A stretch of DNA of 25,591 nucleotides from Planctomycetota bacterium (GCA_016872755.1 VGZE01000038.1:1-25591), one strand, 5' to 3'; positions 1-20,333 are shown, numbered from the stretch's first letter. Numbers and translations: made by a program. Notes: generated by a model from the letters alone, not told the origin.

Positions 1-492
1 CTGCGTCCCGAACAGCGCCACGCGCGCGAGCTGCAGGCGTTGCTGGCGGGCCCGCTCGCGCCGGCGCTGGCCTCGGTGCAGTGGACCCAGGCCCAGTCGC
101 TGCTGCGCCGCGGCGAACTCGGCCCGGGGCTGCACGCGGCGCGCGGCGCACTCGCGCTCTGCCCGCGCAGCGCACCGCTGTGGGCCGAGTACGCACGCGT
201 GCTCGCGCTGCAGCTAGGATCGCCCGAGCGCGAACCCGATCCGCGGCGCCGCGCCGACTGGCTGAGCGCGGGCCTGGCCGCGCTCGACGAGGGTGCGCGC
301 GCGAGCGGCGAGCCGGCCGGATTCGCGTTCGCGCGCGCGTTCGTGCTGCTGGCCAAGGCGGGCACGGATCCGGCAATCGACTGGCCCGGCGGATCGGCCG
401 AGCTCGATCGCTCGGCACGCGAGGCCCTCGCCGCGGCCGCCGAGTTGGGCCATGGACCGGCTCGCGCGCTGCTGGAGGGCGCAGGACCCTGA
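1..492 (+). CDS. 3' end of a gene running in from upstream of the window; TPR-like helical repeat protein C-terminus (function unknown)
   Basis: Frame 1 is open from base 1 to the stop at 490-492. Ala/Leu/Arg-rich helical composition (LALCPRSAPLWAEYARVLALQLG) resembles TPR-type repeats. No catalytic motif recognised. Confidence 0.4.
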   Translation: MRPEQRHARELQALLAGPLAPALASVQWTQAQSLLRRGELGPGLHAARGALALCPRSAPLWAEYARVLALQLGSPEREPDPRRRADWLSAGLAALDEGARASGEPAGFAFARAFVLLAKAGTDPAIDWPGGSAELDRSAREALAAAAELGHGPARALLEGAGP

Positions 493-595
493 AAGCGCGG
501 CCTTTTTCCGAGGGCGGGATCCGACGATGGACTTGGCACCTTTGCCGAGGTCGGGAATACTGGAAGGGCCTGCCAGCCCCCCACCCCCGGCGCCG

Positions 596-1804
596 ATGAT
601 TCCAGTCCCGATCCACGCCCGGCCCGCCTTGCGGCGGCTGCTCGGCGCCTTGCTGGTCGCTTCGTGCGCGGCCCCCGTGGCCGGCCAGGTCGCTCCGTCC
701 CAGGCAGGACCTTCGGAGTCCGGCTCGGCGATCGTTCCCAAGCTGCGCGTGATGGTCGTCGGCGACTCGTGGGCCACCTACGAGGGTCCGGCGATTCGCC
801 AGGTCTTCTTGGACGCCGGCGATGGCGACAAGGACCTGCTCAACATCGGTGTCCCCGGCGCGAAGGTCGCGGTGTTCGACTCGCCCTTCTGGCTCGCGTA
901 CGGGAAGATGTTCCTCAAGCAGAACCCGACCATCGACACGATCCACTTCTCGATGGGCGGCGTCGATTTCCTGACAAGCTGGCACGCGGATGATCCGCCG
1001 GCCGTGCAGGCCGCGTTCTTCGACGACATTGCATTCCACATCCGGCACATCGCGCTTGAGCTGATGTCCGTGCGTCCGAACCTGCGCGTGCTGCTGACGG
1101 GCTACGACTTCTGGAATTTCGTCGAGCCGGTCGCGGCGCAGCCGGGGCAGTTGTGCTGGGACGCGTGGATCAACGTGTTCCACCAGCCGACTCCGGAGCA
1201 GGTCAATCTCGCGATGATGGAGATGGAGCTGCGCCTCGAGGATCTCGCTGAACAGTCGGACCGCATCGACTACGTGCGCACGATCGGCTTCCTGCAGACG
1301 CTGTACGGCTATCCGAGCAAGGGCATCCCGCCGTTCTCGTTTCGCATGCCCGACCTGAAGCTGCCCACGCCGCCCGAGGCGATGGCGGATGCGGGTCTCG
1401 ACTGCGTGCACCCGAGCGAGGCCGGCTATTACGTGCTCGCGCAGCACTTCTACGGCGCCTATTACCGCACGCGGTTCCACCCGGCCAGTGAGCTCGCGCT
1501 GCTGGGGCCGGCGCCGGGATTCGCCGGCGCGCAGAACACGGTCAAGGTGCAGGGGCTCACGCCGCTGCAACCGGCGCTGCTGTATTTCGGCTTCCGCCCC
1601 GCGCTCGAATCGGTCGGCGGTTGCACGTTGCCGCTGCTCGGCGTCGGCGAAGTCGCCGCGACGCTGGTCTTGCTGCCGGACGGATTCGGCAACGCCGGAA
1701 CGAAGTTCCAGATCCCGCTGGCACTCGAAGGCCGCATCCTGTTCACGCAGGCCGTGCAGCCCGGCTCATGTCGGGCCAGCAACGTCAAGACGACGTACTT
1801 GTAG
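596..1804 (+). CDS. Secreted SGNH/GDSL-family hydrolase (lipase/esterase-like), 402 aa
   Basis: ATG at 596 gives an N-terminal signal-peptide-like segment (MIPVPIHARPALRRLLGALLVASCAAPVAGQ). GDS block VMVVGDSWA and C-terminal DxxH block DCVHPSEAGYYVLA are typical of SGNH hydrolases. An in-frame ATG at 527 with a GAGGG 12 nt upstream is an alternative start. Confidence 0.7.
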   Translation: MIPVPIHARPALRRLLGALLVASCAAPVAGQVAPSQAGPSESGSAIVPKLRVMVVGDSWATYEGPAIRQVFLDAGDGDKDLLNIGVPGAKVAVFDSPFWLAYGKMFLKQNPTIDTIHFSMGGVDFLTSWHADDPPAVQAAFFDDIAFHIRHIALELMSVRPNLRVLLTGYDFWNFVEPVAAQPGQLCWDAWINVFHQPTPEQVNLAMMEMELRLEDLAEQSDRIDYVRTIGFLQTLYGYPSKGIPPFSFRMPDLKLPTPPEAMADAGLDCVHPSEAGYYVLAQHFYGAYYRTRFHPASELALLGPAPGFAGAQNTVKVQGLTPLQPALLYFGFRPALESVGGCTLPLLGVGEVAATLVLLPDGFGNAGTKFQIPLALEGRILFTQAVQPGSCRASNVKTTYL

Positions 1805-1897
1805 GGTTGCCGCACCGGCCGGTTGGAGGCCGGCTCAGGGCCGGCCGCACGGATCGCCCGCCGCCGGCCGACAGCGGAGACCGTAGCGCCGCCCGGA

Positions 1898-3646
1898 TCA
1901 GGTGCCGCGCGCCGCACCCGGCCGCGTCGGACCGTCCTTGCGCGAAGGCCCAGCCTCGCCAGCACCACCCTGCTCGGCGCTCTCTTGCGCGCTCTGCTGG
2001 TTGCCGCCGGCGAGCTTGCCCAGGTAGGCCGGCATCTCGACGCCGCCGATGTCCTTCATGATCTCGAGCGTCGGCGGCAGCGCGCCGGCCAGCGACTGCA
2101 GGAAATTCGCGGTGCTGCCGCCCTTGCCGTCCTTGCCGCCGCCGTCCCACACGACGACCTTGTCGAACTTGATGTTCTGGATCGCCTTGGACGCGTTCTC
2201 GCTGAGCTTCTCGATGTGCTCGAGCATCAGCATCTGGAACGCGGCCTGCGAGCCTCCGCAGCTCTCGACGATCTTCTTCAGACCCTCGCCCTTCTTGGCC
2301 AGGATCTCGTACTGACCGCGCGCCTCGGCTTCCAGGCGCGCGAAGATCGCGCCGGCGGCCGCCTCGGCCTCGATCTTGGTCCTGGCCGCATCGGCCTCCG
2401 CGTCGACGATGACCTTCTCCTTGATCGCGCGCGCGACGGCTTCGAGCTCGGCGCGCTTCTCCATCTCGATCTTCTTGGCCTGCGCCTCGGCCGCGCGGGC
2501 CTCGGCCAGGTATTGCGCCTCGCGCACGCGCGCCTCGGCCTCGCGGTGGCGCGTCTCGCCGATCTGGTAGGCCTCGGCCTCGCGCACGCGCAACTCGGCG
2601 TTCGCGCCGGCCACCTCCGCCTTGGCCTTGTTCTCGCCGCCGACCGCGCGCGCCAGCGCCTCGGCCTCGCGGATGCGCAGCTCGGCCGCAGTGCCGGCGA
2701 TCGTCGCCTTGGCCTCGTTCTCGCCGATGACGGCCTTGGCATTCGCGTCGGCGACCTTGATGCGCTTCTGGCGCTCCGCCTCGCGCACCTGGGCTTCCTG
2801 CTCGAAGGCCGCGGTCTGCTGACCGATCTGCTTTTCCTTCTCCAGCTCGGCCAGCTTGACGAGCTTCTCGCGCTCGGCGTCCTTCGTGCCGATCTCGCGC
2901 AGCTTCTCGGCGTTGGCGACGTTGATCGCGCGCTCGCGCTCGGCCTCGGCGACGCCGATCGAGCCCTTCTTCTCCTGCTCGGCCACGTCGATCATCGCCT
3001 GCTGCACGGCCGTGCTGGCCGCCTTGCGGCCGATCGCCTCGATGTAGCCGGACTCGTCGGTGATGTCCTTGATGTTCACGTTGATCAGCACGAGGCCGAT
3101 CTTCTTGAGCTCGGGCTCCAGCGAGGTCTGGATGCGCTCGAGGAACATGTCGCGGTCGCGGTTGATGTCCTCGATGCGCATCGACGCGATCACCTGGCGC
3201 AGCTGGCCGAAGATGATGTCCTCGGCCTGGCGCACGATCAGCGGCTTGTCGAGCCCGAGCAGGCGGATGGCCGCGTTGGTCATCACGTCCTCGTCGGTGC
3301 CGATCGCGACCGTGAACACGCTCGGCACGTTGACGCGGATGTTCTCGATCGAGAGCGCGCCCTGCAGCGGGATCTCGATCTGCATCGGGTCGAGGTCCAG
3401 CCAGTCGAAGGACTGGATCAGCGGCCAGACGAAGGAGCCGCCGCCGTGCAGCGTGCGCGCGGCGCGCCCGCTGGCGACCTTGCCGTAGATCACGAGCACC
3501 TTGTTCGACGGACAGCGCTTGTAGCGCCGCACGATCATCATCACGAAGCCGAACGCGATCAGGACGCCGGCGACGACGGCGAACAGCATGATCGCGTCGC
3601 CTTCGAAGAACGGGAGGCCTTGGGCCAGCAGGACGGAAGTGTTCAT
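1898..3646 (-). CDS. Flotillin / SPFH (band 7) domain protein, FloT/YqiK-like, 582 aa
   Basis: Start ATG (complement 3644-3646) gives MNTSVLLAQ, an N-terminal TM segment, an SPFH core (IENIRVNVPSVFTVAIGTDEDVM...LRQVIASMRIEDINRDRD) and a long Ala/Glu/Lys coiled coil with EA-repeat character typical of flotillins. The upstream part of the 775-aa track ORF overlaps nfeD and is Arg-rich junk, so it was trimmed. Confidence 0.85.
   Translation of the reverse strand: MNTSVLLAQGLPFFEGDAIMLFAVVAGVLIAFGFVMMIVRRYKRCPSNKVLVIYGKVASGRAARTLHGGGSFVWPLIQSFDWLDLDPMQIEIPLQGALSIENIRVNVPSVFTVAIGTDEDVMTNAAIRLLGLDKPLIVRQAEDIIFGQLRQVIASMRIEDINRDRDMFLERIQTSLEPELKKIGLVLINVNIKDITDESGYIEAIGRKAASTAVQQAMIDVAEQEKKGSIGVAEAERERAINVANAEKLREIGTKDAEREKLVKLAELEKEKQIGQQTAAFEQEAQVREAERQKRIKVADANAKAVIGENEAKATIAGTAAELRIREAEALARAVGGENKAKAEVAGANAELRVREAEAYQIGETRHREAEARVREAQYLAEARAAEAQAKKIEMEKRAELEAVARAIKEKVIVDAEADAARTKIEAEAAAGAIFARLEAEARGQYEILAKKGEGLKKIVESCGGSQAAFQMLMLEHIEKLSENASKAIQNIKFDKVVVWDGGGKDGKGGSTANFLQSLAGALPPTLEIMKDIGGVEMPAYLGKLAGGNQQSAQESAEQGGAGEAGPSRKDGPTRPGAARGT
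2585..2770 (-). repeat. Internal tandem duplication (~90 bp x2) inside the flotillin coiled-coil region
   Basis: Two adjacent ~30-aa units are near-identical: VIGENEAKATIAGTAAELRIREAEALARAV / GGENKAKAEVAGANAELRVREAEAYQIGE. The DNA units correspond (ctcggc...cttggcctcgttctcgcc...). Coordinates are approximate. Confidence 0.4.
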
Positions 3647-3660
3647 GGCGTGGACGCGAG

Positions 3661-4293
3661 TCAGGAAAGGCCGCTCTCGCGGCCGACGCGGGCGACGAGG
3701 AAGGTGTCGTTGTTCAGTTGCGACAGCACGAGCACCTGCGTGCCGGTCGGCAGTTCGGCGCCGTCGGTCAGCGCCTGGTACTCGGCGCTGCGCCCCTGGA
3801 TCGACAGCGTGATCTTCCCGGCGCCGGAGCGATTGGCCGGGATGCGCAAGTACACCTGCGCGGACTTGCCGACCGCGTTCTCGGAGCGGATGTTGCCTTC
3901 GGTGTTGAGCTTGCGCTGCAGCGTGAGCACCCAGGCGACGATCAGCCCGACCGACATGCCGCAGGCCAGCGCGAACAGCGCGACCTGCCAGCTCTCCCAG
4001 CCGCGCTCGCAGGCCCACCAGCCGCCCAGGCCGAAGAAGGTCAGGAACGCGACCAGCGTGCGCACGGACAGCAGTTGGAACGAGCCGGCGGATTCGTGCG
4101 TGTCGGCATGGCCGGCACCGACGTCCTCGGGGTGCAGGTCGTGCGCAGCGTCGTGTCCGTCGCCGATCCCGAAGGCGAGCAGCGCCGTCTGGATCACGAG
4201 AATCGTCCCGCCGGCAGCCGCGCAAGCTATGTAGACGAGTTCTTGGGTCAGCATGTTCGACTGCGCGCCGAAGGCCGTCGCGGCCTCGAGCAA
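3661..4293 (-). CDS. NfeD-family membrane protein (flotillin-associated, YuaF/YqiJ-like), about 197-210 aa
   Basis: N-terminal TM helices and a His/Asp-rich loop are followed by a C-terminal OB-fold-like segment (GKSAQVYLRIPANRSGAGKITLSIQGRSAEYQALTDGAELPTGTQVLVL) typical of NfeD short forms. It lies immediately upstream of flotillin on the same strand, with a 14-nt gap. The start is either the ATG at 4293 or the ATG at 4254. Confidence 0.7.
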   Translation of the reverse strand: MLEAATAFGAQSNMLTQELVYIACAAAGGTILVIQTALLAFGIGDGHDAAHDLHPEDVGAGHADTHESAGSFQLLSVRTLVAFLTFFGLGGWWACERGWESWQVALFALACGMSVGLIVAWVLTLQRKLNTEGNIRSENAVGKSAQVYLRIPANRSGAGKITLSIQGRSAEYQALTDGAELPTGTQVLVLSQLNNDTFLVARVGRESGLS

Positions 4294-4326
4294 TCTCCTG
4301 CGCAGGCGCGGCAGCCTACTCCCGAC

Positions 4327-5169
4327 ATGCCTTCGGGTTCAATGCGCGGCGCCGCTCCGTATACTCCTCCACGCGTGCTGCTGCTCCTGTCCGACGCCGC
4401 TCCCGGCATCCTCGACCGGGTGATCCAGTTCTTCGGCGAATTCGGGTATTGGGGCCCGTTCCTGCTTCTGCTTGCCTGCGGGCTGGGGCTGCCGCTGCCC
4501 GAGGAGATCTCGCTGATCGGCTCGGGCGTGCTGTTGTACGAGGGCTACGTCGAGTTCTGGCCGGTCACGGCGGTCTGCATGGTCGCGATCCTGGGCGGCG
4601 ACTCGATCCCGTTCCTGCTCGGGCGCCGTTACGGCCTGTCGCTGCTGCGCATCGGGTGGATCTCGAAGATTTTGCATCCGGAGCGCTTCGCGAAGTTCGA
4701 GGCAAAGTACGCGAAGCACCGCAACATGGCGGTTTTCTCGTGCCGCTTCGTGGCCGGCCTGCGCATGCCCGGCTACTTCCTGGCGGGCGCGATGGGCACC
4801 TCGTACTGGCGCTTCCTGCTGCTCGACACGATCGGCGCGGTGCTGACCGTGCCGATCTCGATCTACCTCGGCAAGCTGCTGGGCGGCGAGCGCGAGCGGC
4901 TGCAGCAGGAGGTGCACAAGGTGCACATGCTCGTGCTGTACGGCGTGATCGCCGTGCTGCTCTACCTGCTCTTCCGCGCCTGGCGCAAGCGCCGCGCGCT
5001 GGCCGCGGCGGCGCGCGCCGAGCAGGCCCCCCCGCCGCAGGTGCCGGTGCTGCCGATACGCGATCCGCGCCTGGCCGAGGTGGCCGCGCAGGCGCTGGAA
5101 GCCGGCCAGGAGGGCACGCTGGAGGCACGCCGCGGCGCGCCGGGCAACGGATCCGACCAAGCGCGCTAG
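4327..5169 (+). CDS. DedA / SNARE-associated (TVP38/TMEM64) family inner-membrane protein, 280 aa
   Basis: Only the part of frame 1 downstream of nfeD is usable. ATG at 4327 (or 4342) gives MPSGSMRGAAPY...FFGEFGYWGPFLLLLACGLGLPLPEEISLIGSGVLLY, followed by GRRYGLSLL...FEAKYAKHRNMAVFSCRFVAGLRMPGYFLAGAMG, which are DedA hallmark blocks. Stop TAG at 5167-5169. Confidence 0.75.
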   Translation: MPSGSMRGAAPYTPPRVLLLLSDAAPGILDRVIQFFGEFGYWGPFLLLLACGLGLPLPEEISLIGSGVLLYEGYVEFWPVTAVCMVAILGGDSIPFLLGRRYGLSLLRIGWISKILHPERFAKFEAKYAKHRNMAVFSCRFVAGLRMPGYFLAGAMGTSYWRFLLLDTIGAVLTVPISIYLGKLLGGERERLQQEVHKVHMLVLYGVIAVLLYLLFRAWRKRRALAAAARAEQAPPPQVPVLPIRDPRLAEVAAQALEAGQEGTLEARRGAPGNGSDQAR

Positions 5170-5204
5170 AATTCCATCCCTCACGAACACGTCCGCACGG
5201 AGCC

Positions 5205-5585
5205 ATCCTCATCGAACCCAAGACCCTTGCCTGCCTGGCCGCCCGCATCGCCGACGAGAAGAAGGGCCAGGACATCCAGGTGATCGACGTGAGAGAGCGC
5301 CTGCGCGTCGTCGATTACTTCGTGATCGCGACCGCGACCAGCCGGCCGCAAGTGCGCGCGATCCAGAACGAAGTTCACGTGCGCCTGAAAGCATTGGGCG
5401 AAACGCACCTGCCGATCGAAGGCGCCGATCTCGGCTGGTGGGTGCTGCTGGATTACGTCGACGTGGTCGTGCACGTGATGCAACCGGAGGCGCGCGCGTA
5501 CTACGAGCTCGAGCAGCTCTACGGCGACAGCGAGCGGGTCGACTGGCGCGCGGTCGATGTTCCGGCGCATGCCGCCGGCAACTGA
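5205..5585 (+). CDS. rsfS: Ribosomal silencing factor RsfS (Iojap/DUF143 family); start codon unresolved
   Basis: Conserved block IADEKKGQDIQVIDVRERLRVVDYFVIATATSRPQVRAIQNEVHVRLKALGE...WVLLDYVDVVVHVMQPEARAYYELEQLY matches RsfS. No ATG/GTG/TTG lies in frame between the dedA stop and the conserved core; the nearest upstream in-frame start is at 4449. Translation may start at a non-canonical codon (ATC 5205/5211 or CTG), or the gene overlaps the dedA 3' end. The 5' coordinate is approximate. Confidence 0.6.
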   Translation: MLIEPKTLACLAARIADEKKGQDIQVIDVRERLRVVDYFVIATATSRPQVRAIQNEVHVRLKALGETHLPIEGADLGWWVLLDYVDVVVHVMQPEARAYYELEQLYGDSERVDWRAVDVPAHAAGN

Positions 5586-5739
5586 ATCCGTGCGTTCGCG
5601 GAGCCTCGACTCCGAATTGCGTCCCGATTCCAGGCCCACGCGCCCGACTCCCGATAACTTCGGGTAGATTTGCTGGATGCAGCAGCTCGCGTGAGGATCG
5701 GCGTGTCCGCGTCCCCGCCAGCGTGCGCATCCCCGGCCC

Positions 5740-7299
5740 ATGAAAATCGTTCTCTATCAGCCCCAGCAGACCAACAAGCGCGTGCACGGGCAGTCGAACC
5801 TCGACATGCTGCCGCTCGAGCTGATCCACATCGCCGGATACCCGGTGCAGGCCGGCCACGAGTGCGTGGTGATCGACGGCTCGCTGTACGAGCAGGCCGA
5901 CGCGCACCGGCGCGTGCTGGAGGCTTGCGACGGCGCCGCGATCTTCGCGACGACCGGCATCCTCGGCTGGATGGTCTCCGATGGCTATGTGTGCGCCGAG
6001 AAGGTGCGCGCGAAGCATCCGGGGATCAAGCGCGTGATCGGCGGCTGGTTCACCAGCGTGATGCCGCACCTGCACCTGAAGGACGGCGTGTTCGACGCGG
6101 CGGTGCTGGGTCAGGGCGAGCTGACCTTCCGCGACCTCGTCGATGCAATCGGCGCGGGCACTCCGCTCGAACAGGTCGACGGCCTCGCGCTGTGGCGCGA
6201 TGGTCAGCTCGTCAAGACCGGCCATCGCGCCGTGGTCGGCTTCGAGAAGCTGCCCGAGCCGGCCTGGCACCTGATCGACTTCAAGCCCTACCGCGAGGGC
6301 CAACTGCGGGCCGCGGCGCTCAACGACCACGTGCACATGCCCGGACCGCCGTGGATCGGCAAGAAGAGCCACTACGTCGGCATCACGTACTTCTCGAGCT
6401 TCGGCTGCCCCGAGCCGTGCTCGTTCTGCTGCAGCCCGTTTGTGACCGAGCGGCGCTGGAAGGCGAAGAGCGCCGACAAGATCCTGGACGACATCCAGAT
6501 GCTGCAGGAGCGCTGGGGGCCGATCGACGTCGTGCGCTTCCACGATGCGAACTTCGGCGTGATGGAGAAGCGCACGCGCGCGTTCGCCGAGGGGATCCTG
6601 AAGCGGAACATGAAGCTCGGCTGGAACGCGTTCATCGAGACCTATTCGATCAACGACTACCAGCTCGACACGCTCGACCTGTGCGCGCAATCGGGCTACT
6701 ACGTCGCCGAGATCGGCGCGGAGTCGGGCGACGCCGAGACGATGAAGCGCGTCGGCAAGCCGATCCGCGGCGACATGAACTACAACGCGGCGGTGCGGCT
6801 GCACGACCGCAACATCTGGGCGTCGATCACCTACATCATCGGCTTCCCCTACGAGTCCGAGGAGTCGATGGTCGCGACGCTCGACGAGGCGCGGCGCATC
6901 CAACTGCGCTGCCCGAACTCGTCGACGCACGTGCTGCCGTTCCGGCCGATCCCCGGCACCTCGATGTACGACCTGGCGCAGGAGCTCGGCTTCCAGGCGC
7001 CGGAGGACATCCACTTCTGGGGCGGCCAGACCGAGTACCACCTGCAGCAGACCTGGAGCGTGATCCCGCCGCGCATCGCGCGGCTGCGCAAGCTGCACAA
7101 CCACTACACGACGCTCTACAAGGGCCTCGCTCACCGCGAGCCGGGCATGTTCGAACGGGTCGCGCGCTGGCACCTCGAGTCCGACAACATGCGCTTCCCG
7201 GTCGACGCGAAGCTGTTCGCGCTGGTCGACAAGATGGAGAAGCGGCTGTTCAAGAAGAAGGAAGTCAAGCAGGACCTGGTCGACCAGGCCCTGGGATGA
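5740..7299 (+). CDS. B12-binding (class B) radical SAM enzyme, 519 aa
   Basis: N-terminal cobalamin-binding Rossmann-like segment (MKIVLYQPQQ...LELIHIAGY...GHECVVIDGS). Radical SAM cluster motif CxxxCxxC in FGCPEPCSFCCSP. TIM-barrel-like core and a C-terminal extension. The fold is that of class B radical SAM methyltransferases/cyclases; the substrate is unknown. Confidence 0.85.
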   Translation: MKIVLYQPQQTNKRVHGQSNLDMLPLELIHIAGYPVQAGHECVVIDGSLYEQADAHRRVLEACDGAAIFATTGILGWMVSDGYVCAEKVRAKHPGIKRVIGGWFTSVMPHLHLKDGVFDAAVLGQGELTFRDLVDAIGAGTPLEQVDGLALWRDGQLVKTGHRAVVGFEKLPEPAWHLIDFKPYREGQLRAAALNDHVHMPGPPWIGKKSHYVGITYFSSFGCPEPCSFCCSPFVTERRWKAKSADKILDDIQMLQERWGPIDVVRFHDANFGVMEKRTRAFAEGILKRNMKLGWNAFIETYSINDYQLDTLDLCAQSGYYVAEIGAESGDAETMKRVGKPIRGDMNYNAAVRLHDRNIWASITYIIGFPYESEESMVATLDEARRIQLRCPNSSTHVLPFRPIPGTSMYDLAQELGFQAPEDIHFWGGQTEYHLQQTWSVIPPRIARLRKLHNHYTTLYKGLAHREPGMFERVARWHLESDNMRFPVDAKLFALVDKMEKRLFKKKEVKQDLVDQALG

Positions 7300-7508
7300 A
7301 CCGGCGCGTGGGGCCGAGTTGCGCCCGGCGACAATTCTGGCCCCGATCCAGGGGTCGCCCAGCTGGTTGAACGGGCCGGCTGAACGGGCCGCTCGCGCGG
7401 CTGGCAACCCGACGGCGGCGTGCCGGCGCAACGCACGACCGGAGCCGGGGTCGTGCCGGACGCCGGCGCCTGGGCGGCGCGGCCCTGCCGCCACATGGCT
7501 ACGGCCCC

Positions 7509-7751
7509 TTGCCTCGCTGCGGCCGAGCGGTGCTGGAGCGCCGCGGGTCCGGTCGGGCGCTGATCGAGTTCGAGGACGGTCGTGAACTGGTGGCTTCCGT
7601 AGCGCTGCGCCACCCCCGCGCCCGCCACGGGCACCCCTCGGTCGAGGTCGCCGAATCCGCCGACGGCGGCCATGCGACGGTGCTCGACGAGGACGACGGG
7701 CTCATCCCGGCCTCGTTCAGCCCGGTCGTACAGCCTGCCCCAGCCCTCTGA
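7509..7751 (+). CDS. Hypothetical small protein (about 75-80 aa)
   Basis: TTG start at 7509 (or GTG at 7529). GC3 is very high and codon usage is coding-like (gag/gac/ctg/atc/ttc). The C-terminus is acidic. It sits in a 650-bp gap between the radical SAM gene and the HU gene. No recognisable domain. Confidence 0.3.
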   Translation: MPRCGRAVLERRGSGRALIEFEDGRELVASVALRHPRARHGHPSVEVAESADGGHATVLDEDDGLIPASFSPVVQPAPAL

Positions 7752-7820
7752 GCAGCGCTCGCGACCACTCCGCGGCGCCAGGAATCCTCGGGAAAATCGC
7801 ATTTTCTCGCGACACAGCCC

Positions 7821-7850
7821 TTCGAAAACGCCTGAAAAAAGCGCTAGGCT
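7821..7850 (+). promoter_or_regulatory. Candidate sigma70-type promoter for the HU gene (-35 TTCGAA, 18-nt spacer, -10 TAGGCT)
   Basis: It lies in the only AT-enriched stretch of the window (7790-7850), about 110 nt upstream of the HU start. An imperfect inverted repeat GAAAATcgcATTTTC at 7792-7806 sits just upstream and could be an operator. Motif match only. Confidence 0.2.
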
Positions 7851-7957
7851 CCGCTTCCGTGTCGTGCGCCTGGGGCTTTCGCCACGGTGTTTTCGCACGC
7901 ACGTCCAAACCTATCGATCAATCCGATCAACGCACAGGAAGAGGAAAGAGAACCTAC

Positions 7958-8308
7958 ATGGCAACGAAGAAGAATGCGGGCGGCTCGTCGAAGCCGATCA
8001 AGAACGTGCTCAGCAAGTCGGCCCTCGCCAGCCACATCGCGGGCTCGACCGGCATCGCGTCGAAGGACGTGAAGGCCGTCATGGGCGCGCTCGAGGGCGC
8101 GATCTGCGGCTCGATCAACAAGAAGGGCGCGGGCATGTTCGTGCTGCCCGGTCTGCTCAAGATCACCGCGGTCAACGTTCCGGCCAAGCCGAAGCGCACC
8201 GGCATCAACCCGTTCACGGGCCTCGAGCAGACCTTCGCCGCCAAGCCGGCGAGCGTGAAGGTCAAGGTCCGCCCGATGAAGAAGCTGAAGGACGCGGCGA
8301 AGGGCTAG
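7958..8308 (+). CDS. HU/IHF-family nucleoid-associated DNA-binding protein with a Lys/Ala-rich N-terminal extension, 116 aa
   Basis: Strong RBS GAGGAAAGAG 8 nt upstream of ATG 7958. The HU fold signature includes the beta-arm and RTGINPFTG (R-x-G-R-N-P-x-T-G-like) motif: KSALASHIAGSTGIASKDVKAVMGALEGAI...GMFVLPGLLKITAVNVPAKPKRTGINPFTGLEQTFAAKPASVKVKVRP. The first ~20 residues (MATKKNAGGSSKPIKNVLSK) form a basic tail. Confidence 0.85.
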   Translation: MATKKNAGGSSKPIKNVLSKSALASHIAGSTGIASKDVKAVMGALEGAICGSINKKGAGMFVLPGLLKITAVNVPAKPKRTGINPFTGLEQTFAAKPASVKVKVRPMKKLKDAAKG

Positions 8309-8315
8309 TCCCCTC

Positions 8316-8380
8316 TGCTTCGCTCGCCAGCGAAGCACTGCGAGACGGGCCGGATCCCACGCGGGATCCGGCCCGTCTCG
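8316..8380. terminator. Two tandem GC-rich hairpins between convergent genes (HU + strand, aldo-keto reductase - strand); likely bidirectional terminator
   Basis: Hairpin 1: TGCTTCGCT-cgcc-AGCGAAGCA (8316-8337). Hairpin 2: a perfect 18-bp stem CGAGACGGGCCGGATCCC-acgc-GGGATCCGGCCCGTCTCG (8341-8380) followed by CTTTCC. The U-tract is weak, as is usual in high-GC genomes. Confidence 0.5.
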
Positions 8381-8407
8381 CTTTCCGTGCAACGGGCGCG
8401 GCGCGAC

Positions 8408-9400
8408 TCAGTAGCGCGCCGGCGGCTCGGGCTTGTTCGCGACGATCGCCTCGATGCGCGCGAGCACCTCGCCGGACAATTTCGGCAGCGCGTCGAGTGC
8501 CTTCAAATTCTCCGCGAGCTGCTCGCGCTTCGTCGCTCCGAGAATGACCGTGCTGACGCGCGGGTTGAGCGCGCACCATGCGATGGACAGTTGCGCGAGC
8601 GAGCAGCCGAGCTCGCGCGCCAGCACGCCGAGCTCGCGCGCCTTGGCGAGGTTCGCGCGGCCGGCGCTGCTGTCGAGCGCCTCCTCGCGCAGCCACTTGT
8701 ACTCCGGCAGCGCCATGCGCGAACCGGCCGGCACTCCGCCGTCGTACTTGCCGGTCAGCAGACCCGACGCGAGCGGCGACCAGATCGTCGTGCCCAGCCC
8801 GAGCGCGTCGTAGAGCCGCGCGAACTCGCGCTCGACCTTGCGGCGCGCGAACAGGTTGTACTCGGGCTGCTCCATCGTCGGCGGGGCCAGACCCAGGTCG
8901 CGCGCGATCCCGTGGGCCTGCGCGATCTCGTCGGCGCGCCACATGCTCGTGCCCCAGTAGAGGACCTTGCCCTGCGCGACCAGGTCCCCCATCGCGCGCA
9001 CGGTTTCCTCGAGCGGCGTGTCGAGATCGGGCCGGTGGCAGAAGTACAGATCGAGGTACTCGACCTGCAGGCGTTCCAGCGCGTTGTGGCAGCAATCGAC
9101 GACGTGCTTGCGCGACAGTCCCTTCTGGGTCGGCAGCTTGCCGCCCCAGAAGACCTTCGACGACACGCAGTAGCTGTCGCGGCGCCAGCCGAGCGTGCGC
9201 AGCGCGCTGCCCATGATGCGCTCGCTCTCGCCGGCCGCGTAGGCCTCGGCATTGTCGAAGAAATTGACGCCCGCATCGTAGGCCTGCTTCATCAGCTCGG
9301 CGGCGGCGCGCTCGTCGAGTTGCTGCGAGAAGGTGACCCAGGAGCCGAAGGAGAGCAGGGAGAGCTTGAGGCCGCTCTGGCCGAGGCGACGGTACTGCAT
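8408..9400 (-). CDS. Aldo-keto reductase family oxidoreductase (Kv-beta/Tas-like subgroup), 330 aa
   Basis: MQYRRLGQSGLKLSLLSFGSWVTF...GVNFFDNAEAYAAGESERIMG...LDLYFCHRPD...GKVLYWGTSMW...IWSPLASGLLTGKY carries the AKR catalytic tetrad context (D, Y, K, H blocks). It lies 44 nt downstream of the MBOAT-SGNH gene on the same strand. Confidence 0.85.
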   Translation of the reverse strand: MQYRRLGQSGLKLSLLSFGSWVTFSQQLDERAAAELMKQAYDAGVNFFDNAEAYAAGESERIMGSALRTLGWRRDSYCVSSKVFWGGKLPTQKGLSRKHVVDCCHNALERLQVEYLDLYFCHRPDLDTPLEETVRAMGDLVAQGKVLYWGTSMWRADEIAQAHGIARDLGLAPPTMEQPEYNLFARRKVEREFARLYDALGLGTTIWSPLASGLLTGKYDGGVPAGSRMALPEYKWLREEALDSSAGRANLAKARELGVLARELGCSLAQLSIAWCALNPRVSTVILGATKREQLAENLKALDALPKLSGEVLARIEAIVANKPEPPARY

Positions 9401-9444
9401 GAGGGGCGCGCGAAAGAGTGACGGGAGGGCGCAAGAGCGTAACG

Positions 9445-12012
9445 TCAGCGAATCCCGAGCAGCTCGGGCCGCGCCGACAACTCACCGTACAGGCGCGCCG
9501 CGAGCAGTCGATGACCGTTCGCGTTGGCGAGGTGGTACATGTCCGAGATCATGATCTCGGACAGCGCGGGCTCCTGCACACCCTTGCGGATGTCGATGGT
9601 GAGGAAGCCGAGCCGCTCGGCAAGGGAGCGGACCTGGTCGATGCGCATGGTCATGCCGAACTCGACCGTCGCGTCGGCCTCGAACACCGGGACTTCGAGA
9701 TACACGGGGATCGCGCCCATTTCGACGCACGCGCCGTGAAAGCGGCGCAGGGCCCACATCTCGATGTCCTCGAGCACGCCGGCCACCCGGCGACGCACCT
9801 CGCCATCGTCCAGTTCCGGCGTGATGCCGGCCCGCCTGTAGGCGTCCTCGAGCTCGGGCATGAATTCCGGGCGTGTGCGCGCCACGGCGATCAGGTACTT
9901 GATGGTCGACCCGATGTGGTTCGACAGCAGCACGACGTCGGGCTCGTACGCGGCGACCTTGCGTTCGAGCTGGAACATGTGGTGGAACACCGAGTACGCG
10001 GGGACCGAGAAATTCAGGATCTCGTAGCGCAGGCCGTTGACCGAGGACTGCTTCTGGTTCAACTGGAGCTCGACCTGGCGCTCCCAGACCTCCGCGTCGG
10101 AGACCCCCATGCCCATCTCGACGCAAGTGCCGAGCAGCGCGATGCGCCAGGTCCGCGGAGGCTTGCGGAGCTCGTATTCGCGATCGCGCATGCCCGCGCT
10201 ATTGATCGTGTGCTGTTGCCCACCGATCTCGAGCCGCTGCGACGGCGGGAGCTCGAACTCGAGCAGGCCGGGCACGGGGCGCACGATCGCATTGCGCAGG
10301 AACGTCGGCACGTCCTCGGGATCGAACTGCGCGCCCGACCAGGCCCACACCACGCGGCGGTCGCGCTGGATCAGCCGGTCGTAGTACGCGATGCCGTCCG
10401 CATCGGCGTCCTGTCGCGCGCTCGATTCCACGCGCAGCGGAGTCAAGGCCGCCGCGATCGGCGCACCGAGAGCCGCGCTCGCGCGCTCCCAGCCGAGCAG
10501 CAGGAGCAGCGCACAGGCCGCGGCACGCGCCCACGCACCGGCGGATCCGGAGCGCGCCGCGGCGACGGCGCGCGCGAGCTCGGGCCGCAACTGCACCAGC
10601 ACGCCCGCGCCAATGAGCAGCGCGAGCACGCCTGTCAGCACGAACCAGTCCCGCAGCGGGCTCGCGGCGGCCTGCTTCAGCACGCCCGACCACTCGCTCA
10701 GTGATCGGCTCGACCACAGCGACCACAAGAGCGACGTGGTCGCGAACACGCCGAGCACGCGCAGCGCATGGCGCAACGCGGCGCCCAGGCGCGGCGGCGC
10801 CGCCGGCGCGCCCGGCGCCAGCACCGCGGGCCCGGCGGCGCGACGCGCCTCGGCCAGCACGCTCCACAGCGCCAGCAGCGCCGCGACGCCCCAGAACATG
10901 CCGTCCCAGGCCAGCGGCAGCCCGCCCTGCAGGAAGAACCACTGCAGCGCATGCAGCCACCACGTCGCGACGAACACGAGCGCCGTGGACGCCACCAGCG
11001 CGAAGGTCGTCCCCCGCATGCGCAGGCGCATGTAGGCCGGGTAGTAGACGAGCTTCTTCATGAACTCGGTCCAGTAGACGTTCGTGCGCCGCCAGCTGTC
11101 GCTGAAGCTGTGCGCCAGCAGGTACGCGTGGTTCGTCTCGGGGAGCTGGAAGCCGAACAGGTGCAGCATCCCGATCACCAGGTGGAAGTGCCCGGAGATG
11201 CGCAGGTAGAGCAGGTAGCTCGAGCAGACGAACATCAGCACGCCGCCCAGGTCGTGCACGTCGCCGGCGGCCGGGGTCAGGTACGCGTGGACGGCGCGGT
11301 AGGCCAGCAGGTGCAGGATCCCGCGCAGCATCCAGCGCAGCCCGCGCGCGTGGATCTCGCGCGCCGGGGCCGCGTAGTACGTGCGCTGGAAGGTCCGGTA
11401 GTCGACGACCGGAAAGAGCAGGAAGCAGACGTTCGGCAGCAGGAAGAAGTACGCGACGCGCATCCAGATCGACGCGGGCCGCGGCTGCGTGTGCTCGTCG
11501 TACAGGTAGATCGCGCCCCGGAACAGGAACATCGACGCGACCAGCGGTACCACCAGCGACTGCTCCGGCGCGCTGCCTCCGGGAAGGCGCGGCGCCGGGA
11601 TCCAACCGGCGCGCAGCGCGACGAGCAACGCGCCGCATGCGAGCAGGCTCGCGACGCGCCAGCGGATGTGCGCGCGCAGGTTGCACAGCAGGAACAGCAC
11701 TCCACCGAGCACGCCGACCGCCAGTGCATCGACCGGGCCGAGCACGCAGGCGAAGGCCACCGCGCTCAGCGCAACGAAGAACGGCAGCTTCCAGGCACCG
11801 GGCAGCCACGCGTGCACGCAGTAGCCGAGCGCGAGCACCGGCAACACGAGCGGCAGTCCGAGACCGGCCTCCAGTTCCAGCGCCGCGATGGCGCCGCACA
11901 GCATTCCCAGTTGCAGCGCATGCGCGACAAACGCCTTCCAGGCACGGGGTTCTGGTTCCGCATGCACGGGTACCGGCGCTGCATGCGAGGCAAGTGCGAG
12001 CCAACGCCGCAT
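9445..12012 (-). CDS. Fused MBOAT (AlgI/DltB/PatA-like membrane O-acyltransferase) plus C-terminal SGNH (AlgJ/AlgX/PatB/DltD-like) domain protein, 855 aa
   Basis: Start ATG (complement 12010-12012) gives MRRWLALASH. The N-terminal ~470 aa are polytopic and include the MBOAT signature region LPETNHAYLLAHSFSDSWRRTNVYWTEFMKKLVYYPAY (compare AlgI NFNSPY...[21 protein letters not shown]) and a conserved His in ISGHFHLV. The C-terminal ~380 aa have a GDS-like block (IALLGTCVEMGMGVSD) and a DxxH block (SDMYHLANANGHRLLAARLY) of SGNH hydrolases. The upstream 267 codons of the track ORF overlap the methyltransferase gene on the other strand and were trimmed. Confidence 0.75.
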   Translation of the reverse strand: MRRWLALASHAAPVPVHAEPEPRAWKAFVAHALQLGMLCGAIAALELEAGLGLPLVLPVLALGYCVHAWLPGAWKLPFFVALSAVAFACVLGPVDALAVGVLGGVLFLLCNLRAHIRWRVASLLACGALLVALRAGWIPAPRLPGGSAPEQSLVVPLVASMFLFRGAIYLYDEHTQPRPASIWMRVAYFFLLPNVCFLLFPVVDYRTFQRTYYAAPAREIHARGLRWMLRGILHLLAYRAVHAYLTPAAGDVHDLGGVLMFVCSSYLLYLRISGHFHLVIGMLHLFGFQLPETNHAYLLAHSFSDSWRRTNVYWTEFMKKLVYYPAYMRLRMRGTTFALVASTALVFVATWWLHALQWFFLQGGLPLAWDGMFWGVAALLALWSVLAEARRAAGPAVLAPGAPAAPPRLGAALRHALRVLGVFATTSLLWSLWSSRSLSEWSGVLKQAAASPLRDWFVLTGVLALLIGAGVLVQLRPELARAVAAARSGSAGAWARAAACALLLLLGWERASAALGAPIAAALTPLRVESSARQDADADGIAYYDRLIQRDRRVVWAWSGAQFDPEDVPTFLRNAIVRPVPGLLEFELPPSQRLEIGGQQHTINSAGMRDREYELRKPPRTWRIALLGTCVEMGMGVSDAEVWERQVELQLNQKQSSVNGLRYEILNFSVPAYSVFHHMFQLERKVAAYEPDVVLLSNHIGSTIKYLIAVARTRPEFMPELEDAYRRAGITPELDDGEVRRRVAGVLEDIEMWALRRFHGACVEMGAIPVYLEVPVFEADATVEFGMTMRIDQVRSLAERLGFLTIDIRKGVQEPALSEIMISDMYHLANANGHRLLAARLYGELSARPELLGIR

Positions 12013-12045
12013 GCAGGCGAAGATACCATTCCGGATCCTCGCCCC

Positions 12046-12825
12046 ATGGAACACGGCCACTACTCGGCGCTGGCCGGCGCCTATGCGGCGCACCGCGCCG
12101 GCTATGCCGACGCGGTCGCCGGGCGCGTGCTCGCCGCGGCCTGCGCCGCGGCGAACAAACCCGCGCAGGAGCTCGAGGTCGCCGACGTGGGCGCAGGCAC
12201 CGGAATCTGGTCGCGCGTGCTGGCACGCGCAGGCTGCCGGGTCCGCGCGGTCGAGCCGAACGACGCGATGCGCGAGGCCGGCGCTTCGGATCCCGCCAAC
12301 GGCTCGATTCGCTGGCACGGCGGTCGGGCCGAGGCCACCGAGCTCGCGGCCCGTTCCTGCGATCTCGTCACGATGGCATCGGCGTTCCACTGGACCGAGT
12401 TCGAGGCGGCGCTGGCGGAATTCGCGCGCGTGCTGCGCCCGCACGGCGTCTTCGCGGCACTGTGGAACACGCGCATCGTCGACGAGTCGCCGCTGCTCGC
12501 CGAGATCGAGGCGGAACTGCGCCGGCGCGTACCGCACTACGTGCCGCGCTCGTCGGGGCGCTCCGCCTTCTGCGACAGCCTGTCGGAGCGGCTGCGCGCC
12601 TGCGGCCGCTTCGCGCTCGTCGAGACCTGCGAGGGACGCCACGTCGAGGCGCAGAGTCGCGAGCGCTACCTCGGCATCTGGCGCTCGGTCAACGACGTGC
12701 GCGTGCAGGCCGGCGAACAGACCTTCGCCGACTTCCTCGAGTGGCTCGCGTGGCGCCTGCGCGATGTACCGCGGATCGAGGCCCCGTACCTGACGCGCTG
12801 CTGGATCGCGCACCTGTCGACCTAG
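12046..12825 (+). CDS. Class I SAM-dependent methyltransferase (Methyltransf_11/25-like), 259 aa
   Basis: Motif I LEVADVGAGTGIWSRVLA. An acidic residue after beta2 (RVRAVEPNDAM). Post-I DLVTMASAFHW and RVLRPHGVFAA. Divergent from the MBOAT-SGNH gene, with a 33-bp gap. Confidence 0.8.
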   Translation: MEHGHYSALAGAYAAHRAGYADAVAGRVLAAACAAANKPAQELEVADVGAGTGIWSRVLARAGCRVRAVEPNDAMREAGASDPANGSIRWHGGRAEATELAARSCDLVTMASAFHWTEFEAALAEFARVLRPHGVFAALWNTRIVDESPLLAEIEAELRRRVPHYVPRSSGRSAFCDSLSERLRACGRFALVETCEGRHVEAQSRERYLGIWRSVNDVRVQAGEQTFADFLEWLAWRLRDVPRIEAPYLTRCWIAHLST

Positions 12826-12899
12826 TCGGCGCGTGCCGCACGGGGTCTGATAGACTCGCTCGTGCGTCCCCTCGCGCGCTGGTTCGCGCCGGACGAACC

Positions 12900-13469
12900 A
12901 TGGATCCTGCCCACCGGACCGGCGCGCCGACCCAGCAAGGCACCGTGTACTGGCTCACAGGCCTCGCCGGGGTCGGGAAGTCGACGCTGGCCCGGCTGCT
13001 CGCCGCGCGCCTGCGCGCCGCGGGTCGCGCCGTCGTGCTGCTGGACGGCGACGAGCTGCGCGCGCGGCTGTTTCCGGAGGCCGGCTACGCGCGCGAAGAA
13101 CGTCTGATGCTGGCGCGGCGTTACGCCGGCCTGTGCGGCTTGGTGGCAGCGCAGGGTCCGGACGTCGTGTGCGCGACGATCTCGCTGTTTCCGGAGATCT
13201 GGAACGAGAATCGCCGGCTCCTGCCCGCCTATCGCGAGGTGCTGGTGCGCGCGCCGGCCGAGGAGCGCCGCCGGCGCCGGCCCGAGTTGCACGCCGGCAC
13301 GGCCGACTCGCGCGGACCGGTGGTGGGCGCGGAGCTGGCGGCGCCCGAACCGCACGAACCGCACGCCATCCTCGACAATGACGGCCGCCGATCGCCCGAG
13401 CAACTGATCGACGAGCTGTTGGCCGCATTCGCCGCGCGCGGCCCAGCCTGCGGCATGGGGCGGCCGTGA
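12900..13469 (+). CDS. cysC: Adenylyl-sulfate (APS) kinase-like P-loop kinase, 189 aa
   Basis: GTVYWLTGLAGVGKSTLARLL (Walker A in the APS kinase context GxxxWxTGLSGSGKST), followed by LLDGDELR (compare LDGDNVR), ISLFPEIWNENRRL, then YREVLVRAPAEERRRRRP and C-terminal EPHEPHAILDNDGRRSPEQLIDELL. Co-operonic with a sulfotransferase. Confidence 0.8.
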   Translation: MDPAHRTGAPTQQGTVYWLTGLAGVGKSTLARLLAARLRAAGRAVVLLDGDELRARLFPEAGYAREERLMLARRYAGLCGLVAAQGPDVVCATISLFPEIWNENRRLLPAYREVLVRAPAEERRRRRPELHAGTADSRGPVVGAELAAPEPHEPHAILDNDGRRSPEQLIDELLAAFAARGPACGMGRP

Positions 13470-19941: not shown

Positions 19942-20071
19942 GATCCGGCCTTCAGGTTCCGCGACGCCTCTCGCCGGCAGCGGCGAGCAGCCAGCCGAGC
20001 GGGGCAGCGCGACACTGTCTACTCTACCGCCGAATGCTAGGATCGGCGCGCGGGCTGCAGCCGGCCCGGTC

Positions 20072-20329: not shown

Positions 20330-20333
20330 TCCG

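Follow-up and report, generated by a model that had tools for sequence, protein, structure and literature searches.

Two radical SAM proteins of a Planctomycetota bacterium with apparently separate functions: a predicted CysS-type methylase in a proposed acyl and phosphoramidate gene cluster and a protein outside this pathway

A stretch of 25,591 nucleotides from a Planctomycetota bacterium (GCA_016872755.1, VGZE01000038.1:1-25591; hereafter the window) contains two genes predicted to encode radical S-adenosylmethionine (SAM) proteins with B12-binding domains. We call these rSAM1 (5740-7299, plus strand) and rSAM2 (17980-19941, minus strand) and refer to the genes in 9445-18004 as g9-g15 (Table 1). 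A preliminary description of this DNA regarded the two as paralogues that flank a sulfation and acylation operon and suggested that they modify one scaffold. Our analysis instead favors, with moderate confidence, separate functions in which rSAM2 would be a CysS-type methylase belonging to a cluster of acyl and phosphoramidate genes and rSAM1 would stand outside this pathway. Functions are assigned here on the basis of sequence, structure prediction and genomic setting, and the enzymatic steps, substrates and acceptor named below are proposals built on homology, folds, conserved key residues, and gene order and its conservation. The guanine and cytosine (GC) content of the window is about 70%, so that raw lists of open reading frames (ORFs) consist mostly of spurious frames. 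The gene map was thus built from third-position GC, a frame plot, translations, and Pfam and NCBIfam scans. The window as a whole is a JGI metagenome contig (P0241).

Both radical SAM ORFs are real genes by third-position GC in this GC-rich window, and their coordinates, B12-binding domains and radical SAM cores with a CX3CX2C motif were confirmed. The rSAM1 protein (519 amino acids) includes FGCPEPCSFCCSP and the rSAM2 protein (653 amino acids) includes RGCPFACEFCYWG. The Pfam Radical_SAM model (PF04055, cut-off 29.5 bits) matches rSAM1 with 47.6 bits and rSAM2 with 46.2 bits. With the B12-binding model (PF02310, cut-off 32.1 bits), rSAM2 scores 37.1 bits, above the cut-off, and rSAM1 29.3 bits, just below it. 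The cysteines of the CX3CX2C motif are invariant in each protein's own family alignment (C223, C227 and C230 in rSAM1; C196, C200 and C203 in rSAM2). By sequence, and for rSAM1 also by predicted structure, both proteins are members of the class-B (B12-domain) radical SAM superfamily, and both may bind cobalamin.

Beyond this the two proteins have little in common. A pairwise alignment had been expected to reveal clear paralogy and a shared architecture that included the C-terminal extension. Alignment with BLASTP found 24% identity over 212 amino acids (E 2e-8), a similarity at the superfamily level only. A profile-profile alignment of the two families was limited to the core, covering only rSAM1 84-422 and rSAM2 80-393 (21% identity over 305 columns), and left the N-terminal ~80 residues and the two C-terminal domains unaligned. 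Judged by these alignments, the C-terminal domains are unrelated and the proteins are only distant relatives from different families. Indeed, rSAM1 is roughly as distant from rSAM2 as from solved class-B enzymes (23 bits with CysS, 21 bits with TokK). The best NCBIfam models also differ. For rSAM2 it is KedN5, and for rSAM1 they are HpnJ, BchE, a P-methyltransferase and a radical SAM protein of ladderane lipids, all with scores (84-96 bits) that fall well short of the cut-offs. The preliminary description had named membership of different, well-characterized families as the outcome that would refute its view; this is largely what we find, as the families do differ, though that of rSAM1 is not a well-characterized one.

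Both proteins share superfamily and domain order with HpnJ, HpnR, HpnP and BchE, and HpnJ and BchE are the top, weak, NCBIfam matches of rSAM1. We considered and rejected the identification of either protein as a hopanoid methylase or BchE, because the scores are far under the equivalog cut-offs. These were 96 bits against 577.6 for HpnJ, 86 against 481 for BchE and 51 against 650 for HpnR with rSAM1, and 27, 48 and 28 bits for HpnJ, BchE and HpnR (cut-offs 578, 481 and 650) with rSAM2. Neither protein matched an HpnP model at E <= 0.01. Unlike the settings of HpnJ, HpnR and BchE, the surroundings of rSAM1 and rSAM2 contain no hopanoid or bacteriochlorophyll genes.

The closest solved relative of rSAM2 is CysS. 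A sequence search of the Protein Data Bank (PDB) aligned residues 6-577 of rSAM2 with residues 10-574 of CysS (9n1b) at 354 bits (E 9e-105), compared with 184 bits for TokK (E 4e-53) and 27 bits for OxsB. The KedN5 model NF033712 matched with 303.4 bits over positions 17-602 of 624. CysS (structures 9n1b-9n1d; cystobactamid), TokK and ThnK (carbapenem) and KedN5 (kedarcidin) are cobalamin-dependent radical SAM C-methyltransferases that act iteratively. CysS is formed by cobalamin, radical SAM and C-terminal domains, uses two SAM molecules in a ping-pong manner, and iteratively methylates a pantetheinylated methoxy-aminobenzoate, turning methoxy into ethoxy, isopropoxy and butoxy groups; a tryptophan (Trp75, or Trp76 in TokK) lies under the cobalt, and TokK too uses a pantetheinylated substrate (PMC12846815). 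rSAM2 resembles these enzymes in its three-domain layout, near full-length alignment, CX3CX2C motif and tryptophan under cobalamin. In the HMMER alignment W75 of CysS falls on W73 of rSAM2, a residue shared by all 22 family members aligned, W206 falls on W205, and F485 falls on Y485, where TokK also has tyrosine. Like CysS and TokK with their pantetheinylated substrates, rSAM2 is paired with a carrier protein. From these similarities we infer that rSAM2 works as CysS and TokK do, using cobalamin to methylate carbon, possibly iteratively, on a substrate tethered to phosphopantetheine, while being an orthologue of neither, and that it probably C-methylates an acyl group bound to the acyl carrier protein (ACP) encoded next to it. 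The methylation of unactivated carbons, which the preliminary description named among the reactions of this enzyme class, is what the nearest solved relatives of rSAM2 carry out and is retained as probable for rSAM2; for rSAM1 no specific chemistry is assignable.

Two sets of observations weigh against this reading of rSAM2. Its KedN5 score is under the cut-off of 700 bits, and the sequence appears to be that of a relative outside the curated KedN5 subfamily. In addition, the gate Trp271 and most substrate contacts of CysS are replaced: F17 by L13, W188 by E186, F238 by S237, the gate W271 by L270, L272 by F271 and S273 by N272. With these residues replaced, rSAM2 would therefore have a different substrate, perhaps even with another kind of target carbon, and is not a CysS orthologue, but a shared mechanism is not contradicted. 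The low KedN5 score and a substrate pocket unlike that of CysS would also be in keeping with a class-B enzyme that does not methylate at all and instead catalyzes a ring contraction, cyclization or dehydration like OxsB, HpnJ or AprD4. The scores for CysS and TokK compared with that for OxsB, together with the retention of the tryptophan under cobalamin and of all three domains, make this highly improbable.

rSAM2 is part of a cluster of ten genes (9445-22055) that extends from g9 through a gene for a fatty acyl-AMP ligase (FAAL)-like protein. The same neighborhood was found independently three times, in L001/L002, in L003 and in the P0124 contig, and the cluster is complete in the planctomycete contigs L001-L003. 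In these loci, genes for a methyltransferase, an adenosine 5'-phosphosulfate (APS)-kinase-like protein, a phosphoenolpyruvate (PEP)-utilizer, a C26 hydrolase, a nucleotidyltransferase and a Sulfotransfer_1 protein follow one another and converge with rSAM2, which here, in L001-L003 and in the P0124 contig points away from the ACP and AMP-ligase genes. At the other end of the cluster in L001-L003 is g9, and in these loci tblastn with the ten genes (g9-g18) gave 54-65% identity in the same order. The P0124 contig keeps the order from the methyltransferase through the FAAL. No second radical SAM gene is present in the 20-kb loci of L001-L003 and P0124. The 130 bp between rSAM2 and the ACP gene probably hold the putative promoters of both. 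Thus, of two copies said to flank an acylation operon, rSAM2 is inside a conserved tailoring cluster with an acyl-activation arm, and rSAM1 is outside it, split off by the genes for HU and an aldo-keto reductase. A literature search on planctomycetes and phosphoramidate returned nothing relevant, one on KedN5 and radical SAM returned nothing, and we found no description of this cluster in the literature covered.

Only a few homologues share 60-68% identity with rSAM2, and these are from planctomycetes. Remoter homologues are scattered among Pseudomonadota, Acidobacteriota and Myxococcota and occur in many actinomycetes, where they are annotated as KedN5-like. A scan of GTDB with the rSAM2 alignment returned, among the matches listed, mostly actinomycete KedN5-like loci with at most 42% identity; none of the loci among these matches had the cluster, which on this count is restricted to near relatives among the planctomycetes. 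Farther afield the gene set is no longer kept together, and a carrier protein is still a frequent neighbor of rSAM2-family genes. A metagenome-assembled genome (MAG) of Pseudomonadota (L004) has three tandem rSAM2-family genes with an ACP gene, and in a MAG of Pseudomonadales an ACP-like ORF of 92 amino acids lies directly downstream of the rSAM2-family gene. A Bradyrhizobium homologue lies beside an AMP-ligase and a polyketide synthase (PKS) of 4,079 amino acids. In L004 (GCA_039193195.1, 1260-15938) the triplet and the ACP gene adjoin an apparent diversity-generating retroelement with genes for a reverse transcriptase, bAvd and two proteins with NACHT and FGE-sulfatase domains.

The genes between g9 and rSAM2 were labeled as sulfation genes in the preliminary description. 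This label is probably wrong, since these genes fit a pathway for a phosphoramidate donor, and comparison of their sequences indicates that they more likely make and transfer phosphoramidate. In Campylobacter jejuni the enzymes Cj1415-Cj1418 make CDP-phosphoramidate 3'-phosphate. The translationally coupled genes g11-g14 encode the same four enzyme types and, together with the methyltransferase g10, resemble the C. jejuni O-methyl phosphoramidate pathway, as compared by role and model. We propose from these matches that g12 may be an L-glutamine kinase (Cj1418 role), g14 a CTP:phosphoglutamine cytidylyltransferase (Cj1416 role), g13 a gamma-glutamyl-CDP-amidate hydrolase (Cj1417 role) and g11 a cytidine diphosphoramidate 3'-kinase (Cj1415 role). 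The g12 protein matches NF004508/PRK05849 over its full length with 820.9 bits (cut-off 501), a model named "hypothetical protein". For g13 the gamma-glutamyl-CDP-amidate hydrolase model NF045546 gave 109 bits (E 3e-31) over the full length, below its cut-off of 250 bits, and the next model 58 bits. Plasmid homologues of g14 are named "phosphocholine cytidylyltransferase family" in RefSeq. PDB searches with the g12 and g13 proteins returned no Campylobacter structures.

All four enzyme types are encoded together, and their order is the same in five other loci; the cassette occupies 12900-18004 of the window and is found in L001-L003, L093 and L094. From g11 to g15 each gene overlaps the next by 4 bp, the overlap between the stop codon of g14 and the TTG start codon of g15 being TTGA. 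In L001 (14197-17130), and also in L002, the kinase and PEP-utilizer are fused into one protein of 977 amino acids. This fusion speaks for a kinase that belongs to the pathway of the glutamine-kinase-like PEP-utilizer and not to sulfate activation. In every planctomycete instance, as in the short metagenome contig L093, the gene immediately after that for the cytidylyltransferase is of the g15 type; a metagenome scan with the sulfotransferase alignment returned a single 2.5-kb contig. The C. jejuni transferases are Cj1421 and Cj1422, and here it is g15, with its Sulfotransfer_1 fold, that adjoins the donor genes. By eye, g15 contains a segment RDGRDALLSLY, which resembles what we take to be the 3'-phosphate-binding motif of sulfotransferases, and HPGSGSSW where the motif is presumably PKSGTTW in these enzymes; we treat this resemblance as a lead. 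We propose that g15 could transfer phosphoramidate from 3'-phospho-CDP-amidate, a donor like 3'-phosphoadenosine 5'-phosphosulfate (PAPS). Unlike the C. jejuni pathway, the planctomycete cluster is without capsule or glycosyltransferase genes and its hydrolase scores below the equivalog cut-off.

These assignments have to be set against genuine sulfation, in which g11 would make PAPS, g15 would sulfate the product and rSAM2 would tailor a sulfated acyl compound. Here the annotation itself speaks against the phosphoramidate pathway: besides the Pfam matches of g11 and g15 to APS_kinase and Sulfotransfer_1, the NCBIfam model PRK05541, which g11 matches just above its cut-off (130.6 bits against 127), is named adenylyl-sulfate kinase. 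A further weakness is that we take PRK05849 to be Cj1418 and PRK05541 to be Cj1415. In a Vibrio plasmid, moreover, cysD and cysN lie beside the cassette. However, ATP sulfurylase is absent from the window and the related loci, and the kinase gene is translationally coupled to the PEP-utilizer gene here and fused with it in L001. Genes for a hydrolase and a cytidylyltransferase, which have no role in sulfation and fit the steps of Cj1416-Cj1418, always accompany the kinase, and the Vibrio cassette is without kinase and sulfotransferase. Given the name of the g11 model we keep real sulfation as an alternative, and consider it unlikely.

A tblastn search of plasmids with g12 found the core of PEP-utilizer, hydrolase and cytidylyltransferase in five annotated loci. 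On plasmid AZO_p6 of Azospirillum lipoferum the core lies among glycan genes; with it are a methyltransferase 49% identical to g10, an APS-kinase-like domain and a pair of Sulfotransfer_1 proteins, of which one is 32% identical to g15. In Vibrio alfacsensis (L095) the core is followed by a TagF-like transferase, and in Agrobacterium vitis (L100) by a CDP-alcohol phosphatidyltransferase. Neither of these two loci has an APS-kinase-like gene. A Pseudohalocynthiibacter plasmid has the core among exopolysaccharide genes, and the plasmid locus of a deltaproteobacterium has it with a methyltransferase and an APS-kinase-like gene. Because differing CDP-dependent transferases follow the core in L095 and L100, phosphoramidate transfer may have several unrelated solutions.

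The acyl arm consists of the ACP, the FAAL-like ligase and g9. The ACP contains a GGVLDS motif that aligns with the Pfam-positive ACP of L004, and its homologues are 82-89 amino acids long; the serine of this motif is the probable, still putative, phosphopantetheine site. A longer ACP ORF that starts at 19922 is probably not used. The ligase, which matches NCBIfam PRK09192 with 263 bits (below the cut-off), always follows the ACP in related loci and presumably loads it. JGI calls g9 as a protein of 819 amino acids, which places the start at 11904, and names its homologues DltB/AlgI, that is, membrane-bound O-acyltransferases (MBOATs); many of these carry PF13472. An AlphaFold2 model of g9 made from 20 homologues (predicted local distance difference test score, pLDDT, 82.6) gave as best Foldseek matches the DltB structures 8jem_B (E 7e-7, target TM-score 0.61) and 6bug_C, followed by HHAT and PORCN, and its C-terminal third matched SGNH/GDSL esterases. 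H241 and H318 are conserved in the alignment. In the predicted structure, g9 is a DltB-like MBOAT-fold N-terminal domain fused to a C-terminal SGNH/GDSL-like domain. Block I of the latter reads LLGTC in the planctomycete clade, and the family consensus is GxS, which suggests that the nucleophile could be cysteine.

With its adenylating enzyme, small carrier, DltB-matching membrane protein and SGNH-like domain, the cluster resembles DltABCD. It differs from the Dlt system in that the ligase is of FAAL type and not DltA-like, MBOAT and SGNH domains are fused, a radical SAM protein is added, and g9 has cysteine (GTC) at the SGNH serine position and WRRTN for what is presumably WRRWH. Several findings tell against this view of the acyl arm. 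The MBOAT-like domain of g9 was not detected by sequence, as g9 itself had no Pfam match and a PDB sequence-profile search gave no MBOAT. The motif read by eye in g9 is WRRTN (WRRIN in relatives; N275 is nearly invariant), where we take AlgI and DltB to have WRRWH. The ACP is under curated cut-offs, with 17.9 bits for PP-binding and 70 bits against 130 for the NCBIfam model ACP_for_OlsHI, and no g9-like gene occurs in the P0124 contig within the 10-kb flank. Since ACP_for_OlsHI was the best model, we also considered a link to ornithine lipids and rejected it. The OlsH/OlsI system comprises a GH3-like ligase and an alpha/beta hydrolase (OlsH/OlsI paper), and partner genes of these types are absent here.

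Taken together, these predictions allow a pathway to be proposed. The FAAL-like enzyme would adenylate a carboxylic acid and load it onto the small ACP. rSAM2 would use one SAM to form methylcobalamin and a second to generate a 5'-deoxyadenosyl radical and, as CysS and TokK do, would place at least one methyl group on an unactivated sp3 carbon of the substrate held by phosphopantetheine. The MBOAT-SGNH protein g9 would then accept the acyl group from the carrier and, much as in the Dlt system, pass it on to an extracytoplasmic acceptor. In parallel, g11-g14 would convert glutamine, ATP and CTP to 3'-phospho-CDP-amidate, g15 would transfer the phosphoramidate, and the class I methyltransferase g10 would O-methylate it. 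The target of the phosphoramidate is perhaps the same molecule, or the same acceptor, as that of the acyl group. We suggest, as a speculative extension, a modification of the cell envelope that combines a g15-type phosphoramidate transferase, a branched alkyl or alkoxy group built by rSAM2 on the carrier, and export and attachment by g9.

rSAM2 could also act on a different part of the product, extending an O-methyl group (that of a methyl phosphoramidate or another methoxy group made by g10) to O-ethyl or O-isopropyl and leaving the acyl chain as it is. CysS itself elongates methoxy groups and KedN5 is proposed to do likewise. The class I methyltransferase is constant in the cluster, g10 being the first gene of the plus-strand operon and kept in L001-L003, the P0124 contig and a further related contig (L088), and the interleaving of acyl and phosphoramidate genes suggests a single product. 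However, the CysS residues that hold the aromatic substrate are not conserved in rSAM2, the constant neighbor of rSAM2 across phyla is an ACP and not the phosphoramidate genes, and the Azospirillum cassette is without an rSAM2-type gene. We therefore judge this course improbable and continue to favor methylation of the ACP-bound acyl group.

By sequence, rSAM1 belongs to an uncharacterized class-B radical SAM family found widely among Planctomycetota. Its homologues number in the hundreds, with 51-78% identity over the full length, and all named ones are from Planctomycetota. In the family alignment the mean column identity is 66% and the motif GCPEPCxFCCSP is invariant. The best PDB sequence match was AprD4 (42 bits). 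Full-length similarity to the clade of CysS, TokK and KedN5 is absent, with matches over partial regions only (21-23 bits for TokK and CysS, 36 bits for the KedN5 model). An AlphaFold2 model of rSAM1 (pLDDT 85.7) matched OxsB, TsrM, MgmA, CysS, AprD4 and TokK, and its superpositions on OxsB, TsrM, MgmA, CysS and TokK had E values of ~1e-18 to 1e-16. Because the model matches all solved class-B enzymes about equally, it does not point to a specific chemistry. AprD4 has the class-B fold but is not known to use cobalamin; therefore, the fold alone is no proof of cobalamin binding.

In a related contig rSAM1 is missing at this site. The JGI contig L088 (~91% DNA identity) is collinear in blastn with 287-5585 and 7374-13289 of the window and shares with it the genes for flotillin, DedA, RsfS, HU, aldo-keto reductase, g9, methyltransferase and kinase. 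The intervening segment of the window, 5586-7373, which contains the entire rSAM1 gene, corresponds to ~584 unrelated bp in L088 (6026-6610), and a tblastn search of L088 with rSAM1 gave no match. rSAM1 was likewise absent from all four other cluster instances when 10-kb flanks were searched with tblastn and phmmer. Thus, rSAM1 is in a variable segment and probably has no part in the cluster pathway, and its closeness to rSAM2 would be incidental. Our best guess, from sequence and model, is that it acts on some cellular substrate, probably a conserved one, that has nothing to do with the cluster. The boundaries of the insertion or deletion are clean, collinearity stopping at the RsfS stop codon (5585) and restarting 75 bp past the rSAM1 stop (7374). 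The region upstream of HU (7374-7957) is ~77% conserved in L088, where an ORF of 198 amino acids is called; in the window it has only short open frames, such as one of 80 amino acids at 7509-7751 (plus strand), and may represent either a degenerate gene or regulatory sequence.

The proposal that the two proteins act in turn or repeatedly, as paralogues, on one lipid-like scaffold that the intervening genes would make can be weighed against these data. Both are class-B radical SAM proteins and their genes are 10.7 kb apart. A finding that counts against a separate rSAM1 is that the Azospirillum plasmid encodes an HpnJ/BchE-like B12 radical SAM protein, 23% identical to rSAM1, ~7 kb from the related cassette, which would be a weak link of such proteins with phosphoramidate clusters. 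However, rSAM1 and rSAM2 are from different families and neither reaches the HpnR, HpnJ or BchE cut-offs, rSAM1 is missing at the corresponding site in L088 and from the other cluster instances, its homologues lie in unrelated neighborhoods, and the HU and aldo-keto reductase genes separate it from the cluster. The comparative data already largely refute joint action, and we regard it as very unlikely. Neighbors of rSAM1 homologues vary: one genome has genes for DUF2959 and PDF1_C-domain proteins, three loci have PdxA close by, and one has a tandem paralogue. We tried to derive a function from this context, in particular from PdxA, and abandoned the attempt as no pattern was consistent.

True paralogy does occur within the rSAM1 family. 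Locus L090 (4299-7560) has tandem genes for proteins of 534 and 519 amino acids, 51% (over the full length; the second copy) and 72% identical to rSAM1, respectively. At least two subtypes can therefore be told apart in the family, and its widespread proteins of ~544 amino acids may be the second.

Two class-B radical SAM genes within 14 kb need no special explanation, as such genes are probably common in these genomes. Of more interest is the ten-gene cluster, in which acylation from a carrier and radical C-methylation would meet a phosphoramidate pathway whose candidate transferase has a sulfotransferase fold. In it, a predicted iterative methylase of the CysS/TokK type appears outside secondary-metabolite clusters, and its gene partners are an ACP, a FAAL and an acyltransferase with the DltB fold. 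This apparently is a Dlt-like acylation and phosphoramidate cluster of Planctomycetota, unlike the nonribosomal peptide synthetase, PKS and beta-lactam settings of CysS, TokK and KedN5. To our knowledge, the phosphoramidate-donor pathway has been characterized biochemically only in Campylobacter, and here it appears in Planctomycetota and Azospirillum beside sulfotransferase-fold proteins. If these proteins transfer phosphoramidate from a PAPS-like donor, this would explain the 3'-phosphate of the donor and make g15-type proteins a testable candidate for the poorly understood transfer step. The Pfam names "APS kinase" and "sulfotransferase" can thus mislead annotation. If the more speculative extension to the cell envelope is correct, one molecule would carry the products of both phosphoramidate chemistry and radical C-methylation, in a previously undescribed modification of the envelope.

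Table 1. Features of the window, with the matches that identify them.
Feature	Coordinates	Strand	Evidence
Gene without assigned function	527-1804	+	
Flotillin / Band 7	1898-3646	-	
Small membrane protein	3661-4293	-	
DedA / VTT	4327-5169	+	
RsfS	5166-5585	+	
rSAM1, 519 aa	5740-7299	+	Pfam Radical_SAM, B12-binding
HU	7958-8308	+	
Aldo-keto reductase	8408-9400	-	
g9, large membrane protein (predicted MBOAT-SGNH)	9445-12012	-	Foldseek, JGI names of homologues
g10, class I methyltransferase	12046-12825	+	Methyltransf_11 63.5 bits
g11, APS-kinase fold	12900-13469	+	PF01583 72.8 bits
g12, PEP-utilizer family	13466-15811	+	NF004508/PRK05849; Pfam PEP-utilizers and PPDK_N
g13, C26 / GATase hydrolase	15808-16425	+	NF045546 best NCBIfam model
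g14, MobA-like nucleotidyltransferase	16422-17156	+	NTP_transf_3 77.2 bits
g15, Sulfotransfer_1	17153-18004	+	Sulfotransfer_1 60.8 bits
rSAM2, 653 aa	17980-19941	-	CysS/TokK/KedN5 homology
Divergent intergenic region rSAM2/ACP, 130 bp	19942-20071	.	
ACP, 85 aa	20072-20329	+	
FAAL-like ligase	20334-22055	+	AMP-binding 139 bits
Extracytoplasmic function (ECF) sigma factor	22100-22648	+	
Ser/Thr kinase, 776 aa	22638-24968	+	

Directly downstream of the FAAL gene is a pair of genes for an ECF sigma factor and a Ser/Thr kinase with a large C-terminal extension, the end of the first overlapping the start of the second; this pair is not kept beside the cluster in L001-L003. An Rfam scan of the whole window (1-25591) at gathering thresholds gave no match, including no cobalamin riboswitch near either B12-type gene. 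At the other end of the window, the first gene encodes a protein of 425 amino acids whose N-terminus looks like a signal peptide and whose motif VVGDSW recalls SGNH hydrolases; it had no match in Pfam or NCBIfam and is 87% identical in L088. The next two genes (1898-4293, minus strand) resemble a flotillin-NfeD-type pair, in which the flotillin/Band 7 protein has a long coiled-coil stretch rich in alanine and glutamate and the second, small membrane protein is without a Pfam match.

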